DNA of 13,796 nt from the IMG/VR virus record IMGVR_UViG_2619619125_000002; one strand, 5' to 3'. This document shows, in pieces, positions 1-12,265 of the stretch (position 1 is its first letter; each line of letters begins with the position of its first letter). Both the position numbers and the translations under genes were made by a program. The notes under the pieces are model-generated. The model ran no database searches and was not told the origin of the DNA. It saw only the letters and a program-made list of their open reading frames with translations. The DNA comes from a virus (taxonomy: Duplodnaviria > Heunggongvirae > Uroviricota > Caudoviricetes).

Positions 1-576
1 CTACGGCAGTGCTGGCCATTCAATATCCTGTGCAGTTGACGTATCAACACGGTTCAGCAATACCCGATACTTTTTCCATGCTTCCAGCAACGAGATTTCT
101 TCCTCCGTTGCAATTTCCAGATCTGCAGCATCCTGAAGCGGCGCAATATGCTCACTGGCTACCTGCATCAGGCTGTTTTTTGTTTCTTCCGCCTCCCGGA
201 TCCGGAACAGTTTTTCTGCTTCCGTATCCTTCACCCAGGCTGTGCCGTTCCACTTCTGATATTCCCCTCCCGGCGATAACCAGGTAACATTTTCCGGTAA
301 CGGACCGAGTTCAGAAATAAATAACGCGTCGCCGGAAGCCACGTCATAGACGGTTTTTCCCCGATGATCTTCAACGAGATGCCACGATGCCTCATCACTG
401 TTGAAAACAGCCACGAAGCCTGCCGGAATATCTGGCGGTGCAATATCGGTACTGTTTGCTGGCAGACCTGTATGAGGCGGAATATATGCGTCACCTTCAC
501 CAATAAATTCATTAGTTCCGGCCAGCAGATTATAAATTTTTATGGTCCGTGGTTGTTCACTCATTCTGAATGCCAT
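1..576 (-). CDS. Tail fiber assembly protein (Tfa family), 191 aa
   Basis: ORF translation [28 protein letters not shown]... matches the Tfa proteins of E. coli prophages (TfaR/TfaQ/TfaE) as remembered; ATG at 574-576, stop TAG at 3-1 exactly at the window edge. Confidence 0.85.
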
Positions 577-4296: not shown

Positions 4297-4692
4297 CTAA
4301 CCTCGCATGTCAAAGCCAGATTTCTGAAAATCTCTGTAGACTTCCGGATTGTTGAAGGCCGGAAATTTGGCTTTATGAGCTGCGGACTTTATCGCTTCGC
4401 AATAGGCTTTATCACCGTTACTGGTAGATATTTTTAACGCCGTGCCATCCTGAGAGAATTCCATATGCAACCTGCATTTTTTCCCTTTCCAGTTATGCGG
4501 CTCATCAAGTTTGGCATTAATTGCAGCTCTGATTCCCCGCGCTTGCGCCCCCCATTCATCCTGATCATCCCAGCGTCCTGAACTGCAACTACCTGTAGCA
4601 GTAGTTTTGTGGCAATCTGAAGGGTGTAAAGGTGTGCATCCCGCAACAAAACCGACCCAAAAAGTCAACATAACGATTTTCTTTAATCCCAC
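4297..4692 (-). CDS. Lipoprotein with divergent TolA C-terminal (domain III)-like fold, 131 aa, probable GTG start
   Basis: N-terminus MGLKKIVMLTFWVGFVAGC is a lipoprotein signal peptide (lipobox VAGC); GTG start at 4690-4692 preceded by AGGAG with an 8-nt spacer; C-terminal region (KKCRLHMEF...YCEAIKSAA...NPEVYRDFQ) parallels the paralog at 4843-5271. Confidence 0.65.
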   Translation of the reverse strand: MGLKKIVMLTFWVGFVAGCTPLHPSDCHKTTATGSCSSGRWDDQDEWGAQARGIRAAINAKLDEPHNWKGKKCRLHMEFSQDGTALKISTSNGDKAYCEAIKSAAHKAKFPAFNNPEVYRDFQKSGFDMRG

Positions 4693-4842: not shown

Positions 4843-5271
4843 TCAGGGTTTAAAATCCAGCACCCCATTTTGAAATACTTTATATACTTCCGGCGAAGGG
4901 GGGGCAGGTATATCAGCATTCTTTATCGCATTCATCGCTTCACGACATAAATCGAGGTCTCCACTTTCTCTTTTAACCTCCAGTAGAAGGCCATTCGGGG
5001 CCATATGCATTCTCAGTGTACACTCTTTTCCTGAATACTTACTCGCATCCCCGAACTGTTTTTCGATGGCGCTCTTGATTTGATGGGCATACAGACGGAT
5101 ATCCTCACTAACATCAGAAGTACGTTCAGATGAACTCACATACTGTGTCTCTATTGCTTTATCGGAGTAATATGATGTACGGTCATGATAATTTGTCGAT
5201 ACAGCATCAGTGCACCCGATAATAATCCCACTAATAATCAACGTAAGAATTGATGCGCTACGAAAACCCAT
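4843..5271 (-). CDS. Lipoprotein with TolA C-terminal domain (TolA-III) homology, 142 aa
   Basis: Signal peptide with lipobox (IIGC); C-terminal 85 aa (YAHQIKSAIEKQFGDASKYSGKECTLRMHMAPNGLLLEVKRESGDLDLCREAMNAIKNADIPAPPSPEVYKVFQNGVLDFKP) aligns with the C-terminus of E. coli TolA as I remember it (YAGQIKSAIESKFYDASSYAGKTCTLRIKLAPDGMLLDIKPEGGDPALCQAALAAAKLAKIPKPPSQAVYEVFKNAPLDFKP); ATG at 5269-5271 with a GAGGA SD. Confidence 0.8.
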   Translation of the reverse strand: MGFRSASILTLIISGIIIGCTDAVSTNYHDRTSYYSDKAIETQYVSSSERTSDVSEDIRLYAHQIKSAIEKQFGDASKYSGKECTLRMHMAPNGLLLEVKRESGDLDLCREAMNAIKNADIPAPPSPEVYKVFQNGVLDFKP

Positions 5272-5300: not shown

Positions 5301-5330
5301 ATTATATATACCGTTGTTTTGGACGCTCAA
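5301..5330 (-). promoter_or_regulatory. Candidate sigma70 promoter for the TolA-domain lipoprotein gene (-35 TTGAGC, 18-bp spacer, -10 TATAAT)
   Basis: On the - strand, TATAAT (complement of 5301-5306) and TTGAGC (complement of 5325-5330) about 30 nt upstream of the ATG at 5271. Confidence 0.35.
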
Positions 5331-5860
5331 ACAGCGAATCAGATCAAATAAAACGCACATTTGTTAACATTTACACAAAGTCTGCGTGGGATATTCTGAA
5401 AGAATATCCATAATGTGGAGAGAATCTATTGAAGTGCATGGTGCCGGGTGCCTTCCGGTGAACAAAATGTTCGTGATACCTGTCGGCGACAGAAAAGGTT
5501 AATGGTATCACCCCACCGCACAGGGGGATTCACCATGCAGGAGTTTTCTTAGCAAACTCACTGCGCGCCCGGCAACTCCCAACCACATAAAATGCGGAGT
5601 TTGTGGTATTTATGCATATAACTCGCAGGAATTATCTTAAAAAACTGATGTCGATCCGGATTAAAAAGAAGCAGGTCATCATCAGATGACTGGAAAAAAG
5701 GAAAAAAAAAATACTCATCATACAGTTTTGATTGCAGGGATGAGCCTGCTATGCACAATATGCAGAATATAAGCAAGATAAAAATATGCAGGCATATTAT
5801 TTCGGATTTTGTTATTAACACAACCTTTTTAATAATCATTTGGCATACAATAAACCAGTC

Positions 5861-5887
5861 CAAAAAGAACCGCCTAAACAGGCGGTT
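5861..5887 (-). terminator. Terminator-like hairpin in the late leader region (aaccgcc / ggcggtt stem followed by a U-run on the - strand)
   Basis: 7-bp perfect stem with a 6-nt loop; - strand reads ...ggcggtt cuuuuugg. Confidence 0.35.
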
Positions 5888-6141
5888 GGTCAATACAAAG
5901 GATGCTTCGTCTTTATTATAGTAATCTGAGGCGTCGGGTGTCTTGTATCAGACAACATATTGTCCCGCTAAACAGCGAATTACAAACCACCCTGCAATGA
6001 TCTCTCATCTCATTTTATATGAGTTGACGACATCAGGATAACGCATCATCAGCCCCTGCCAAGAAATATCAAAACTCCCGCCAGCAATGTGTTATCACAA
6101 TATTGTAAAAAAAACACAGCACCGAAACTATAACTGGTCTC

Positions 6142-6150
6142 TGTTATAAT
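6142..6150 (+). promoter_or_regulatory. Extended -10 element TGtTATAAT on the + strand, flanked by a 9-bp inverted repeat (6132-6140 / 6162-6170)
   Basis: tgttataat at 6142-6150; aactggtct and agaccagtt flank it symmetrically; no good -35. Could drive a short + strand RNA ending at the 6205-6237 terminator, or be an operator or late-promoter-associated element. Confidence 0.25.
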
Positions 6151-6204
6151 TTGGAGCAGAAAGACCAGTTGCCCAACTAGCAGCATTCTCCCCTGCTTTC
6201 CTGA

Positions 6205-6237
6205 CGTAAAAAAACCGCATTAAGCGGTTTTTTTACG
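6205..6237. terminator. Bidirectional rho-independent terminator (14-bp perfect inverted repeat cgtaaaaaaaccgc / gcggtttttttacg), candidate tR' downstream of Q
   Basis: Perfect 14-bp palindromic arms with a 5-nt loop (attaa); GC core flanked by A7/T7 runs so it reads as hairpin plus U-run in both orientations; lies about 80-110 nt downstream of the Q stop. Confidence 0.6.
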
Positions 6238-6314
6238 ATGTCCATGTCTGCAATCCGCCTCGCGATACAGCTGTGCGAAGCATAGCAAAATTGAAGCAGT
6301 TTATACGTAAGAAA

Positions 6315-6857
6315 TCAAGCCATTTTCTCAGCAAATGATTCACGCATGGGAATATATAGGGCATACTCAGCAACAGCTAACCAATTAGCAATCCGTTTTT
6401 CGCATGTGCTAAAACACCACTCTGGGTGTCCATCATTTAGCAATTCAGCCATTTTGCGCTTAGTCATCCCCCGCCCTTCATAGCGTTGCCGGAGAATGCA
6501 AATCAATCCTGGATGCTCTGCCAGCACCTCACTTATGACTCGATCAATACATAACGCCTCTGCATCAGTACAATGCGCCAGCCAGCTCTTTTGCTTGCCG
6601 TTGATCATCTCTCGCAAAAACGCTTCCAGCTCAGCTTTCTCTATTCCCGCTTTTTTCATTCTACGCAGGGCTTCATTAATGGCTGTTTTCGTCAGTTTTT
6701 TGGATGCCAACAACTGATTGAACATATTCCCTGACCTGCCACCGCCAATATACGACCAGCGCCCCCACATACGTAGTTTTCCCTGAATCCAGACACTTTC
6801 CAGCGTGGTGAGGCGAAGGTGTTCTCCGCTTTTTCCTGTATTCGTTGGGTAAATCAT
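6315..6857 (-). CDS. Putative late-gene antitermination protein Q, 180 aa
   Basis: Sits immediately upstream of the late leader/terminator and the S-R-Rz cassette; contains an RMWGRW motif resembling the ERWGAW motif I recall in the DLP12 Q-like protein QuuD; Cys-containing C-terminal half; start overlaps the YbcO-like stop (ATGA). Confidence 0.6.
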   Translation of the reverse strand: MIYPTNTGKSGEHLRLTTLESVWIQGKLRMWGRWSYIGGGRSGNMFNQLLASKKLTKTAINEALRRMKKAGIEKAELEAFLREMINGKQKSWLAHCTDAEALCIDRVISEVLAEHPGLICILRQRYEGRGMTKRKMAELLNDGHPEWCFSTCEKRIANWLAVAEYALYIPMRESFAEKMA

Positions 6858-7144
6858 AAATGACCTTTCTTTCTCCAGATTTCTTGTGTGCGAAAAACCC
6901 CTTCAGCATGCATCAGGCGCAATTCTTCTTTGGTGTAATCGCTGGTTTTTACCCGCCCGTCGATTAGATCGTGGCATGAGCTACAGGCTATCGCCGCCTG
7001 CATATCGTGTGGTTTTGTCGCTGTTCCGCACGTCCCCGCCAGCCTGTAATGCGCCAGCACAGAGGTTTCGGGATTGTGATTGCAGTAGCCAGGGATTCTG
7101 ATCTGGCACATCTGGCCTTTAGCCGCTTTACGTAAATTCACCAT
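6854..7144 (-). CDS. YbcO-like (DUF1364) putative zinc-binding nuclease, 96 aa
   Basis: Size, Cys/His pattern (CxxxxxC ... CxxC ... CSSCHDLIDGR) and position just upstream of Q match the DLP12 ybcO / nin-region genes as remembered. Confidence 0.7.
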   Translation of the reverse strand: MVNLRKAAKGQMCQIRIPGYCNHNPETSVLAHYRLAGTCGTATKPHDMQAAIACSSCHDLIDGRVKTSDYTKEELRLMHAEGVFRTQEIWRKKGHL

Positions 7145-7743
7145 TACGCAAACTCCAGTAGTTGTGCGGCCACATTTTCAACTTCCTCCTGAGAGGAGAA
7201 TTTACGAAACAGAATCCAGTTCCACAGCACATTCAGTACAGATTTATAAACCTGCTGAAACTCGACTTCGTCCATATTCGCAAAAGCGATGGATTTTGCC
7301 CGACGCCCACGGCTACCGTCCGGATAAATATGCTCGGTGTAAAATCCGGCCTGAATGGTTACCCACTCGCGGAAAGCCTCAAACGACTTTAGCAACGCCG
7401 TATCCCGGGTTCTACGAGTCGCAACGGTGTTAAGGTATTGCTCTGCGGCATCACTCAGGGCTGGCGTGTGTTCCCGACCAACTGATTCGCACAGGTAATC
7501 AACGAAACCAGACAGCAGTTCTCGTTCGCGAGGCGTGATCGCCCCACCGACCGGAGTCCAGTAATCGAATCCCAGTTGCAGGAGTTTGAAAAAACGCTTG
7601 TGGAATGCGTAGTTACGCACACGCTTAAAGTCTGCGTGTATCCACTCACCTATTTTGATTTGATGCAGAAAATCGCAACTCTCCGGCGTCGCCGGGAGAA
7701 GTAAACCAGAAGAAGTTTGTTTGACCAGTTGTATATGCGCCAT
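7144..7743 (-). CDS. DUF1367-family phage protein (nin-region), 199 aa
   Basis: ATG at 7741-7743; stop overlaps the ybcO-like start (TAATG); position upstream of ybcO/Q typical of lambdoid nin-region genes; family assignment from memory. Confidence 0.6.
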   Translation of the reverse strand: MAHIQLVKQTSSGLLLPATPESCDFLHQIKIGEWIHADFKRVRNYAFHKRFFKLLQLGFDYWTPVGGAITPRERELLSGFVDYLCESVGREHTPALSDAAEQYLNTVATRRTRDTALLKSFEAFREWVTIQAGFYTEHIYPDGSRGRRAKSIAFANMDEVEFQQVYKSVLNVLWNWILFRKFSSQEEVENVAAQLLEFA

Positions 7744-7801
7744 TTCTCAATCTCTCGATGGCGCAGCGCAGCAGATGCCAGTTGTTCAGGCTGACGAATA
7801 A

Positions 7802-7829
7802 AGTATAAATAAACTGGCTATGGTGTAAA
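7802..7829 (-). promoter_or_regulatory. Candidate sigma70 promoter for the DUF1367-ybcO-Q operon (-35 TTTACA, 16-bp spacer, -10 TATACT)
   Basis: On the - strand about 60 nt upstream of the DUF1367 ATG, at the boundary with the AT-rich island. Confidence 0.3.
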
Positions 7830-8023
7830 GCCCCACATAGCATGAACAAACACTACATATCAAATAGCTGGTACAAGGATAGAAATACGACATTTATTAT
7901 TAAAAACGATTAGATAAATTACATTTTAATGTTATGCAAAAGTTCTTTTTTATCATAACATTTCAATAAAAGCATTACAGATGCAATCATCCCGTCATCA
8001 TCAATTATTTAAGGTGGTTAAAC

Positions 8024-8110
8024 ATGGAAAATAACAAGTTCGCACATCTCGCTCCTTTTTTATCCGTAATCCTTTTCGCTTGTTGTTTTATATGGGCATT
8101 ATTTTTATAA
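8024..8110 (+). CDS. Small hydrophobic ORF, 28 aa (MENNKFAHLAPFLSVILFACCFIWALFL), candidate small membrane protein
   Basis: ATG at 8024 preceded by the strong SD AAGGTGG with a 6-nt spacer; single predicted TM helix; lies in AT-rich DNA with no other ORF. Confidence 0.3.
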   Translation: MENNKFAHLAPFLSVILFACCFIWALFL

Positions 8111-8204
8111 AGTAGCCACATGATAAGTTGCTGGAATCATATTTCCCACTCAAGTCATTAACATTTGATAAGATATATCTAAAAGGACGCCTTTACATTA
8201 TTTA

Positions 8205-8231
8205 TGTGTATATAATTTATTTATATACACA
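8205..8231. repeat. Perfect 10-bp inverted repeat tgtgtatata (7-nt spacer) tatatacaca, candidate protein-binding site
   Basis: Read directly from the sequence; the left arm/spacer junction contains TATAAT (8211-8216). Confidence 0.3.
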
Positions 8232-8556
8232 GTAAAGGTATCCTGGGAAAATATTTATCGTTAAAAAATACATCATAAATAATTAAGCTGAAATTTCAGA
8301 ACACAACTAATACACACAATAAGGTTCAGTAACAATAATCTATGTGGACTACATCGAGATTTTTTGATTAAACTTTAATAACTTATTCCTAACACACAGA
8401 ATGCATAAACTAAAAGTAAAACAAATAGTTATACGAAAAACAACCATATTTATTATATCTTCTCCTCTAATCAACATATCAATTATGTGTTTCATAACAG
8501 CTTGACATAACCCTCAAAAACACGCATTTATAATGCATGTTTTTGATGAGGTGGTT

Positions 8557-8895
8557 ATGACACACAAGAGAATTCCTAAAGATTGGGTAATCAAACGCTC
8601 AACTCCGTTCTTCACAAAAGAGAACGTACCTTCAGCGTTATTAACACATCATAATACAGCAGCAGGTGTTTTTGGGCAGTTGTGCGTAATGGAAGGCACT
8701 GTAACATATTATGGTTTTACTGATGAGAATGCTACTGAACCGGAGATAAAAGTAGTCATTAATGCTGGCGCTTTTGCAACAAGCCCACCACAATACTGGC
8801 ACCGTGTTGAACTAAGCGATGATGCTCAGTTTAATATTAACTTTTGGGTCGCTCCAGACTTCTCGGGCGAAAAAGTCTATAGCACCAAAAAATAG
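8557..8895 (+). CDS. DUF1971-family protein (YeaR / TehB-N-terminal-domain-like), 112 aa
   Basis: Translation MTHKRIPKDWVIKRSTPFFTKE...VMEGTVTYYGFTDENATEPE...AGAFATSPPQYWH...FNINFWVAPD parallels E. coli YeaR as remembered (RSTPFW...VMHGAVKYLGYADEHSAEPD...AGQFAVFPPEKWH...FNIDFFVAPE); SD GAGGTGG before the ATG at 8557; own terminator downstream. Confidence 0.7.
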   Translation: MTHKRIPKDWVIKRSTPFFTKENVPSALLTHHNTAAGVFGQLCVMEGTVTYYGFTDENATEPEIKVVINAGAFATSPPQYWHRVELSDDAQFNINFWVAPDFSGEKVYSTKK

Positions 8896-8924
8896 ATGAT
8901 CATATTAAAAATGCTTTAACAGTC

Positions 8925-8961
8925 AGACCCGGCAGGGCTATCCCCGACGGGTCTCATTTTT
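8925..8961 (+). terminator. Rho-independent terminator downstream of the DUF1971 gene
   Basis: Long interrupted hairpin (agacccggcaggg ... ccccgacgggtct) followed by cattttt. Confidence 0.6.
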
Positions 8962-9618
8962 GTAAATATATTGGTTCTACATTGACAGGAGACTTCAACC
9001 ATAAGAAGTAATCTGAATACTTGAGCAATAAATTTACTTAAGATTAATGAGCGCACCTTGCCGGACAAAGATAAACCAAGGTAACACCTTTTTTCTAGCC
9101 AGTATGTAATCAATCAGAAAGCCGCTCCATAAGAACAACAGCAAGACAATAAATTGCCATTACAGCCGCAATAGCTAGCGCACATTTGAGAACCAGCACG
9201 ACAACCTCCTGTATTGGACGTACACCAGTTCTGATAAATATGAGGCTGTCTCATCATTGATTCAATATAACTATTGGGTATAGTTTCTGTGATTTTGTTC
9301 TGTAGAAATGGAACACAACAACCAGTCACCACCAGCACTTCTTTAAATACGCCAAGTCCGACGCAAGCTAACCTTCTAGTCCGCTTTGAGCGAGGAGCGG
9401 ACCAAACCCGGCCAACTGACTCTTAAAGGGGCCGCAGGAATTTTTCGTCTGAACTTTCGAAGCTCCTCTCCCTGAAGACAGAAAACTTCTGTGTGCTGTG
9501 GGAATATTGAATCTTTGCCTTAGATATAAATAATTTTATCCCGCCTGAAGTTTACATTATTTTATTTATCTGTTTTTCTAAATCAGACTGCACTCCTTAC
9601 TTAAATCAGGAGCCAGTC

Positions 9619-11010
9619 ATGCCATTTGTTATTTATGTGTTTACTATCAGTGCCTTTGCGCTCGGACTCGCGGAATTTGTCCCCATTGGGCTGACAGACG
9701 TTATGGCTCAGGGGTTGTGTGTGGGTGTGGAGCAGACCGGGGCAGCGGTTACAACCTATGCACTGGGGGCAACGTTCGCGGCACCCGTACTGTCTGCGCT
9801 GACAGCAAGCTGGAGCCGGAAAAATGTAATGCTTACAACTGCCGTTGTGTTTACTGCCGGTAGTCTGGCGGCCGCGTTTGCAGCCACATTACCTCAGCTC
9901 CTGTTAGCGCGGTTCATTGCTGGTCTGGGACACGGCCTGTTTCTGGCTGCGGCATCCAGTACCGCAGCTCGTCTTGCTGGACCGGGTAACTGCCCTGACT
10001 GTGGTGCGGTGATGGGCGACGCAACATACCAGGAAACATTCGATGAAGAGAGTCAGGTTGAAGCTAAGGAAAATGATCCGGAGGAAATGGAAGGCGCTGA
10101 ACATCCGCACAATGAGAATGCTGGCAGCGATCCGCATCGCGATTGCAGTGATGAAACTGGCGAAGTCGCAGATCCCGTAATCGTAGAAGACATAGAGCCA
10201 GGTATTTATTACGGAATTTCGAATGAGAATTACCACGCGGGTCCCGGTATCAGTAAGTCTCAGCTCGATGACATTGCTGATACTCCGGCACTATATTTGT
10301 GGCGTAAAAATGCCCCCGTGGACACCACAAAGACAAAAACGCTCGATTTAGGAACTGCTTTCCACTGCCGGGTACTTGAACCGGAAGAATTCAGTAACCG
10401 CTTTATCGTAGCACCTGAATTTAACCGCCGTACAAACGCCGGAAAAGAAGAAGAGAAAGCGTTTCTGATGGAATGCGCAAGCACAGGAAAAACGGTTATC
10501 ACTGCGGAAGAAGGCCGGAAAATTGAACTCATGTATCAAAGCGTTATGGCTTTGCCGCTGGGGCAATGGCTTGTTGAAAGCGCCGGACACGCTGAATCAT
10601 CAATTTACTGGGAAGATCCTGAAACAGGAATTTTGTGTCGGTGCCGTCCGGACAAAATTATCCCTGAATTTCACTGGATCATGGACGTGAAAACTACGGC
10701 GGATATTCAACGATTCAAAACCGCTTATTACGACTACCGCTATCACGTTCAGGATGCGTTCTACAGTGACGGTTATGAAGCACAGTTTGGAGTGCAGCCA
10801 ACTTTCGTTTTTCTGGTTGCCAGCACAACTATTGAATGCGGACGTTATCCGGTTGAAATTTTCATGATGGGCGAAGAAGCAAAACTGGCAGGTCAACAGG
10901 AATATCACCGCAATCTGCGAACCCTGTCTGACTGCCTGAATACCGATGAATGGCCAGCTATTAAGACATTATCACTGCCCCGCTGGGCTAAGGAATATGC
11001 AAATGACTAA
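9619..11010 (+). CDS. recE: Truncated exonuclease VIII (RecE C-terminal catalytic domain) fused in-frame to a foreign N-terminal segment of about 120 aa resembling the first TM helices of an MFS transporter
   Basis: C-terminal ~300 aa (...[17 protein letters not shown]... ending [11 protein letters not shown]) is the RecE nuclease domain with a PD-(D/E)xK-like D-x-K motif and overlaps the recT start by 8 nt; N-terminal 1 to ~120 ([25 protein letters not shown]...[18 protein letters not shown]) is hydrophobic and MFS-like; real ATG with AGGAG SD at 9608-9612. Confidence 0.8.
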
Positions 11011-11868: not shown

Positions 11869-12063
11869 ATGAGATATGACAATGTTAAACCATGTCCATT
11901 TTGTGGTTGTCCATCAGTAACGGTGAAAGCCATTTCAGGATATTACCGAGCGAAGTGTAACGGATGCGAATCCCGAACCGGTTATGGTGGAAGTGAAAAA
12001 GAAGCACTCGAAAGATGGAATAAACGAACCACTGGAAATAATAATGGAGGTGTTCATGTATAA
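11869..12063 (+). CDS. ralR: RalR, Rac prophage restriction-alleviation protein / type I toxin (DNase), 64 aa
   Basis: Translation MRYDNVKPCPFCGCPSVTVKAISGYYRAKCNGCESRTGYGGSEKEALERWNKRTTGNNNGGVHV matches remembered RalR; stop overlaps the ydaC start. Confidence 0.9.
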   Translation: MRYDNVKPCPFCGCPSVTVKAISGYYRAKCNGCESRTGYGGSEKEALERWNKRTTGNNNGGVHV

Positions 12064-12265
12064 AATTACCGCCACTATTGAAAAGGAAGGTGGCACTCCT
12101 ACTAACTGGACAAGATATTCAAAATCTAAACTAACGAAATCAGAATGCGAAAAAATGCTCTCAGGTAAAAAAGAAGCAGGCGTTTCCAGAGAGCAGAAAG
12201 TAAAACTGATAAATTTTAATTGCGAGAAACTTCAGTCCTCGAGAATTGCATTGTATTCAAATTAA
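12056..12265 (+). CDS. ydaC: YdaC, Rac prophage small protein, 69 aa
   Basis: Translation MYKITATIEKEGGTPTNWTRYSKSKLTKSECEKMLSGKKEAGVSREQKVKLINFNCEKLQSSRIALYSN; SD GGAGG upstream of the ATG at 12056. Confidence 0.85.
   Translation: MYKITATIEKEGGTPTNWTRYSKSKLTKSECEKMLSGKKEAGVSREQKVKLINFNCEKLQSSRIALYSN

Follow-up and report, generated by a model that had tools for sequence, protein, structure and literature searches.

Gene order and elements of the late region

The analysed sequence (13,796 nt, IMG/VR record IMGVR_UViG_2619619125_000002; in the following referred to as the window) matches, with 100% identity, a defective Rac-like prophage of E. coli from which the immunity and replication genes are gone; their place (7744-9980) is taken by a gene for a DUF1971 protein and by a fragment of an MFS transporter that is joined to a recE-like gene in truncated form. 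On the minus strand, the genes for DUF1367, YbcO and DUF1133 are followed by 1.2 kb without annotated genes, by two ORFs with a TolA-C domain and by the lysis genes (see Table 1). The first of the two ORFs (TolA/TonB C-terminal domain, 142 aa, 4843-5271, minus strand; a pseudogene in RefSeq) is preceded by a good promoter match, TTGAGC-18-TATAAT (5301-5330, minus strand), and a ribosome-binding site, and the second is located at 4297-4671; a TonB-C-domain gene is also present near the right end of phage 21. Matches to Rfam families in the window comprised STnc100 within the gene-free segment, the RalA antitoxin RNA (full-length match at 12062-12240, minus strand, opposite ralR) and IS009 (full-length match at 35-233, minus strand, inside tfaR).

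Table 1. Genes and sequence elements of the late region, with their positions in the window.
Feature	Position	Strand	Remarks
DUF1367 gene	7144-7743	-	First in the minus-strand gene order
YbcO gene	6854-7144	-	Between DUF1367 and DUF1133
DUF1133 Q-type gene	6315-6857	-	180 aa
-35 element TTGATT	6318-6313	-	Predicted; overlaps the Q stop codon TGA (6317-6315)
17-bp spacer TCTTACGTATAAACTGC	6312-6296	-	Ends in the extended -10 TG (6298-6297)
-10 element TTCAAT	6295-6290	-	Predicted; without the usual A at -11
Pause element (SDPE) TATGCT	6284-6279	-	Predicted, sigma-70-dependent; 5 nt after the -10 element
Leader hairpin GCUUCGC/GCGAGGC	6281-6257	-	7 bp (arms 6281-6275 and 6263-6257), 11-nt loop; starts inside the pause hexamer
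tR'-type intrinsic terminator	6237-6205	-	14-bp stem including A7/U7 tracts, loop UUAAU
O157-type spacer block	6155-6204	-	~76% shared with O157-type prophage late regions
9-bp inverted repeat around TGTTATAAT	6132-6140/6162-6170		On the mosaic junction ~6154/6155
Degenerate STnc100-like element	5855-6045	-	18-nt internal deletion; TATAAT at 5915-5920; ends in terminator 5868-5887
Bona fide STnc100 sRNA element	5382-5568	-	Rfam RF02076, 82.1 bits (gathering threshold 47)
Lysis genes essD-rrrD-rz	4045-2872	-	After the TolA-C ORFs; followed by trkG

The DUF1133 protein and the predicted promoter region at its stop codon

The DUF1133 protein matched Pfam family PF06576 (7e-107), reached 26.4 bits against a cut-off of 26 with PF06530 (Phage_antitermQ), and was assigned to PHROG phrog_753, "anti-termination protein Q-like" (6e-79); by cross-matches, PHROG "Q-like" families were common to this protein and the Q protein of phage 21 (Q21). 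An alignment of 11 DUF1133 homologues compared with Q21 by hhalign gave a probability of 94.9% (E 4e-8) over nearly the full length. The two proteins differ by an insertion of ~30 aa in the DUF1133 protein and in their recognition helices (TCEKR versus TCRRE), the base-contacting residues being different. A Salmonella homologue of 83% identity is encoded directly upstream of an above-threshold IsrK match; the same position is held in Gifsy-1 by AntQ, a Q-like protein encoded directly upstream of isrK, for which antiterminator activity has been demonstrated (PMC4825925), and the gene was therefore placed in the AntQ family. Judged by these homologies, the gene is of the DUF1133/AntQ type and distantly homologous to Q of phage 21. 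The RefSeq name of DUF1133 is still "domain of unknown function"; the PHROGs, a genomics paper that labels DUF1133 as Q antiterminator by HHPred (PMC8136144) and the work on Gifsy-1 AntQ already treat it as Q-like.

The initial annotation had reported no clean -35/-10 pair on the minus strand downstream of this gene. A candidate pair is, however, present at 6318-6279 (TTGATTTCTTACGTATAAACTGCTTCAATTTTGCTATGCT), where the arrangement TTGATT-17-(TG)TTCAAT-5-TATGCT starts 4 nt outside the interval considered there. The generalized 40-nt pattern, TTG-N17-TGnTTnAAT-N5-TAnGCT, occurred once in the window and in none of 200 window shuffles, and transcription is predicted to start near 6283.

The conservation of this arrangement was assessed in 342 loci with DUF1133 homologues (52-100% identity) from enterobacterial genomes and IMG/VR, which were reduced to 146 unique downstream sequences; 145 were kept after removal of a sequence whose Q ORF fell short of 140 aa. 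A TAnGCT hexamer (or TATATT in the cassettes termed group D) was located at most 60 nt from the stop codon in 143 of the 145 unique cassettes (TAnGCT in 132), a terminator hairpin 25-79 nt past the hexamer in 142, and both elements in 141; the terminator hairpins comprised 92 distinct sequences. With the start placed 7 nt after the hexamer, the predicted RNAs of these 141 cassettes measured 43-100 nt (median 61). Across the 132 unique TAnGCT cassettes the layout TTGnnn-N14-TGn-TTnAAT-N5-TAnGCT was kept: TTG was positioned exactly 34 nt upstream of TAnGCT in every one, TG was present in 128 and TTnAAT in 130, and wherever the -35 element is coding, i.e. situated inside the Q gene, the leucine codon was TTG (99/99 unique sequences). 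A scan of IMG/VR with the pattern returned 120 matches, 78 of them directly after a DUF1133 ORF; among the others, ~25 clearly represented the same cassette and ~17 were chance-like. The cassettes, which comprise several sequence types, were present in ~30% of complete E. coli genomes.

The A at -11 is missing from the -10 element in all E. coli, Klebsiella and Enterobacter-type cassettes. The corresponding arrangements of more distant DUF1133 relatives are TTGATT-17-TATCTT-5-TAAGAT in Rac-SA53, TTGACT-18-TAGTTT-5-TATGCT in Providencia PSTCR8lys (44% amino acid identity) and TTGACA-19-TATTTT-4-TACGCT in Edwardsiella EPP-1 (34% amino acid identity): in all three the first hexamer is a canonical -10 element with a strong -35 element at the stop codon, so that the first hexamer is best read as the -10 element and TAnGCT as the sigma-dependent pause element. 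The same order is found in phage 21 (TTGACA-17-AACACT-7-TAAGCT) and in lambda (TTGACT-17-TAAATT-6-AACGAT). In group D (Salmonella and some E. coli) the stop codon is overlapped by TTGACT-18-TATATT, and the leader belongs to the Rfam family IsrK (67-78 bits, gathering threshold 50), the match starting exactly 7 nt after TATATT. From this geometry TATGCT of the window is predicted to be a sigma-70-dependent pause element. The terminator, 78 nt past the Q stop codon, would also suit a reading in which the conserved block has no promoter of its own and forms the untranslated 3' part of the Q operon, with the hairpin at 6205-6237 terminating early transcription. This is very improbable in view of the -35/TG/-10/-10-like geometry, which is fixed to the base pair, of the TTG that is kept even as codon choice, of the layout shared with phage 21 and lambda pR', and of the homologous position in group D, which is the experimentally used IsrK promoter.

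A further alternative concerns the register of the promoter. By itself TATGCT is a better -10 element than TTCAAT, and in 99 of 141 cassettes the hexamer has a TG of its own, 1 nt upstream, so that a shift of the register by 12 nt is possible: TGcTATGCT (6287-6279) would then be an extended -10 promoter with a start near 6272 and an RNA of ~65 nt, and the upstream TTGATT-17-TTCAAT would serve as Q-binding region or as a second, weak promoter. The combination of the key residues T-12, A-11 and T-7 in TAnGCT, which is missing in TTnAAT, and a purine located 7 nt downstream of TAnGCT in all groups are in line with this shift. However, it leaves the promoter without a -35 element at a usable distance, the TG is absent from group C and part of group A, and the start would cut off the conserved leader hairpin, which begins inside TAnGCT. 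In addition, in the distant relatives including Rac-SA53 a strong -35 element is found 17-19 bp from the upstream hexamer, which is a canonical -10 element, and TAAGCT of phage 21 is an annotated pause element with the promoter elsewhere. Because the annotation of phage 21 and the cassettes of the distant relatives favor it, the model with TTCAAT as -10 element was ranked above the shifted register, which is regarded as unlikely.

With the promoter in its unshifted register, the 17-bp spacer occupies the place of the phage 21 Q-binding element (QBE) between -35 and -10, and is thus a candidate Q-binding element; it is non-coding, yet near-invariant in the E. coli group. A search of the spacer TCTTACGTATAAACTGC for TGAGCA or a convincing direct repeat revealed neither, and its conservation makes a Q-binding site of another type likely instead of TGAGCA repeats. 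The Q21 half-site TGAGCA does occur in Klebsiella/Enterobacter-type leaders; it was rejected as QBE because of its position downstream of the pause hexamer, in the 3' arm of the leader hairpin. This arm contains TGAGCAACA (L163, L167); an identical 9-mer occurs in pR' of phage 21, where it covers the downstream QBE half-site together with the first bases of the -10 element. The shared 9-mer may be a coincidence or a relic of shared ancestry.

Leader hairpin, terminators and the mosaic sequence downstream

In the E. coli group, the conserved stretch begins at the stop codon and breaks off ~26 nt beyond the hexamer; in the window, Q-allele-linked homology reaches as far as ~6253-6256, just past promoter, pause element and leader hairpin, as would be expected for a Q-specific module. 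In each of groups A-D a hairpin was predicted at the position of the leader hairpin, its sequence differing between the groups (e.g. arms GCUCGG/CUGAGC in group B and CGCCAG/CUGGCG in group D), the median z-score for 76 unique leaders being -3.1. A search for compensatory changes within the groups gave no convincing case, the variation being mostly non-compensatory; the support for the hairpin therefore comes solely from comparing the groups with one another. At 9-10 nt past TAnGCT there is a recurrent (A/G)AAGCT motif. The window deviates from most relatives at 6273, in the loop of the hairpin, by a C instead of an A (TCGCACAGCT versus TCGCAAAGCT), which alters the recurrent AAAGCT motif.

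The perfect 14-bp palindrome with A/T runs that had been described at 6205-6237 was confirmed (arms 6205-6218 and 6224-6237, with A7/T7 runs at either side); owing to its symmetry the terminator is potentially bidirectional. On the minus strand, a terminated RNA from 6283 to ~6208 (~76 nt) is predicted. Comparison of the interval with Rfam yielded sub-threshold, terminator-driven matches exclusively (Thr_leader, AgrB and isrK, 16-20 bits); the IsrK model (RF01394) reached 16.6 bits at 6208-6276 (minus strand) against a gathering threshold of 50.

Beyond the terminator the sequence is a mosaic: the O157-type spacer block is followed by segments (5984-6154 and 5860-5943) that are homologous to a block situated just downstream of the tRNA genes of prophages carrying another Q. 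A second hairpin terminator, which the initial annotation had regarded as stacked with the first in the late-operon leader, exists at 5868-5887 (arms 5868-5875 and 5880-5887, 8 bp, followed by CTTTTT), though its affiliation is a different one. The homologues of the surrounding block in two relatives (L033, 2360-2554; L005, 1668-1864) are full-length STnc100 matches of 28.6 and 22.9 bits, below the gathering threshold of 47, and in the alignment the core motifs GGGGTGgT and AGgCACCCGaCaCC are common to the element at 5855-6045 and the true STnc100; the terminator and the TATAAT at 5915-5920 were consequently attributed to an STnc100-like element. The window copy itself gave no match to the Rfam STnc100 model (RF02076) at E<=10. 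Based on this alignment, 5868-5887 is best described as the end of a degenerate STnc100-like element and is no second tR'. The true STnc100 copy is located 290 nt further on in the same leader. Like the STnc100/PasD prophage sRNAs, the element at 5855-6045 has the core motifs and a 3' terminator and is situated in a late-operon leader; it differs from STnc100 by the 18-nt deletion and by homologues that score below the gathering threshold. AAGACA-18-TATAAT (5944-5915) together with the terminator had also been considered, either as an independent sRNA of 47 nt or as another pR'; this was discarded, as the segment is the 3' part of the degenerate element. A comparison of 5845-5960 with the phage collection gave no match. 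The Pas sRNAs (PasA-D), considered for their shared neighbour genes, were set aside; they adjoin holin, esterase or structural genes.

The junction of the two mosaic blocks bears on a further proposal of the initial annotation, an inverted repeat that brackets an extended -10 promoter on the plus strand and a convergent sRNA that would start from it. Both the repeat and TGTTATAAT (6142-6150, plus strand) are present, but the promoter match is at chance level: TGNTATAAT was found once in the 13.8-kb window against 0.79 expected, and at least once in 115 of 200 shuffles. Of the two arms of the repeat, the left one belongs to the tRNA-downstream block (5984-6154), the right one to the O157-like block (6155-6204), and the fold of the repeat is not unusual on the minus strand (z -1.45) and unusual on the plus strand (z -3.7). 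In the relatives, the plus-strand -10 reads CGTTATAAT (L033) or TGTTATAGT (L034) or is absent (L005), and GGTCTC or GGTTTC ... GAGACC is found at a similar place in L033 and L034; there may be a weakly conserved hairpin at the 9-bp repeat. The palindrome-flanked extended -10 is positioned outside the conserved cassette and looks like a chance by-product of mosaic recombination.

The convergent sRNA would comprise ~78 nt from TGTTATAAT, with a start near 6157 and an end at the T-run 6228-6234; it would lie antisense to the late leader of read-through transcripts and could coexist with the cassette. A perfect extended -10, the symmetric terminator with A7 and T7 tracts and the good fold predicted for the plus-strand RNA (z -4.6) speak for it. 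Against this, the promoter consists of the above chance-level consensus match without a -35 element, the terminator hairpin accounts for most of the good fold, and no Rfam family scored above noise. Moreover, promoter and terminator belong to different mosaic blocks joined at ~6154/6155, and the promoter is only partly conserved: homologues of its block lose TG or TATAAT, and their downstream plus strand runs antisense into the tRNA genes. The convergent sRNA is accordingly considered improbable.

Proposed late switch and comparison with known Q systems

Taken at sequence level, the stretch is an ordinary Q-type late regulatory region of the DUF1133/AntQ branch of the Q21 superfamily, and the interval downstream of the gene is probably the Q-dependent late regulatory cassette of a DUF1133/AntQ antiterminator in a defective Rac-like prophage. 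The comparison thus supports the earlier suggestion of a pR'/qut/tR' region and changes its layout: promoter and pause element are positioned at 6318-6279, and tR' corresponds to 6205-6237. The following course of events is proposed. Sigma-70 RNA polymerase would start near 6283 from the promoter abutting the Q stop codon; sigma region 2 would then re-bind the -10-like TATGCT (6284-6279), and the polymerase would pause ~12-17 nt downstream. In cells without Q, transcription would terminate at the hairpin/U7 (6237-6205) to give a leader RNA of ~76 nt with a 5' hairpin, whereas Q, bound to the spacer DNA of the promoter, would be loaded onto the paused polymerase. The Q-modified polymerase could then read through 6205-6237 and the two STnc100-type terminators, i.e. 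three terminators in total between late promoter and lysis genes, and reach essD, rrrD and rz (4045-2872). Several terminators to be passed are normal for late operons. As the prophage is defective, the late switch may be out of use at present.

The Q-pR'-QBE-SDPE-tR' cassette of phage 21 has been described by Yin et al. 2019 and Shi et al. 2019 (PMC6606751). According to the annotation of OL657228, the Q stop codon is followed after 6 nt by TTGACA, the QBE (ATTGAGCA AATGAGCA), AACACT and the start site, then by the SDPE TAAGCTG, 7 nt past the -10 element, the terminator, and the tRNA and holin genes. The window agrees with it in the homologous Q, the position of the predicted promoter a few nucleotides from the Q stop, the 17-bp spacer, the TA(A/n)GCT pause hexamer 5-7 nt past the -10 element, the terminator within ~50-75 nt and, in intact relatives of its cassette, the tRNA genes and then lysis genes downstream. 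It differs by a spacer without the TGAGCA direct repeat, a -10 element without A-11, a pause hexamer that overlaps the predicted start site, and an additional non-terminator hairpin ahead of the terminator. With lambda pR'/6S RNA and StxS (PMC7547250), the cassette would have in common a constitutive late promoter that is terminated just downstream to give a short RNA in lysogens, and a -10-like pause element (in lambda 6 nt after the -10 element); their Q family is unrelated (PF03589), however, and their leaders, with 194 and 258 nt, are far longer.

The third system, the Gifsy-1 antQ-isrK-orf45-anrP locus, was recovered in the survey: C4/a1b1 elements and a gene for an ORF6N antirepressor-like protein come after the group D leader, and the group D locus is this Gifsy-1 locus. 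IsrK is a terminated RNA of 77 nt, some transcription continuing past its terminator (Hershko-Shalev et al. 2016, PMC4825925); the antQ transcript of Gifsy-1 starts ~1.6 kb upstream of antQ. With antQ-isrK-orf45-anrP-isrJ the window shares an antiterminator of the same protein family and, by prediction, a promoter directly after the gene and a short terminated RNA (~77 nt in Gifsy-1) with a terminator that could be read through. In contrast, the leader of the window is not IsrK, the C4/a1b1, orf45 and anrP module is missing, and the Gifsy-1 promoter is of the TTGACT-18-TATATT type without an adjacent TAnGCT. Promoter, short RNA and antiterminator activity have accordingly been demonstrated for one branch of the family, and would apply to the branch of the window by homology.

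The trans-acting function of StxS has been shown experimentally in Stx phages (PMC7547250). It is conceivable, though rather doubtful, that the terminated ~76-nt DUF1133/AntQ leader is likewise a constitutive Hfq-type regulatory RNA in lysogens, like StxS and IsrK. If so, structure might be provided by the conserved hairpin at the 5' end and the seed by the variable segment in the middle, and the crippled TTnAAT with TAnGCT 5 nt further on might set a distinct balance of pausing and promoter escape. In the literature searched, no description of the DUF1133 cis elements (promoter, TAnGCT, leader hairpin, terminator) was found, and the conserved leader sequences gave no match. Knowledge of the cassette allows the annotation of late-operon starts, and of the toxin and moron genes behind them, in many enterobacterial prophages (e.g. 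eplBA in Rac-SA53), and the collected cassettes constitute a set of natural variants of a Q21-type loading site for research on Q antitermination.

Two cassettes in tandem were observed in some phages (L457, 5043-6620 in minus-strand view; L434, 5797-7330; L406, 6513-8130): a group D DUF1133 gene with IsrK/C4 leader and the ORF6N antirepressor-like gene are followed by an orphan E. coli-type cassette (TTGCAA-17-TTCAAT-5-TAnGCT and terminator), which is preceded by a fragment of a Q-gene 3' end and occupies the place of isrJ in Gifsy-1. A sub-threshold isrJ match (25.6 bits, gathering threshold 37) was detected in L033 (4204-4275, minus strand) directly after a different Q-type gene; this adjacency suggests that IsrJ, like IsrK, is the terminated leader of a Q cassette. 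In Rac-SA53 (L476, 3992-5223), the pertussis-like toxin operon eplBA is located between the DUF1133 cassette and the holins, a placement that would put it under the control of this late promoter, as is the case for stx in Stx phages.
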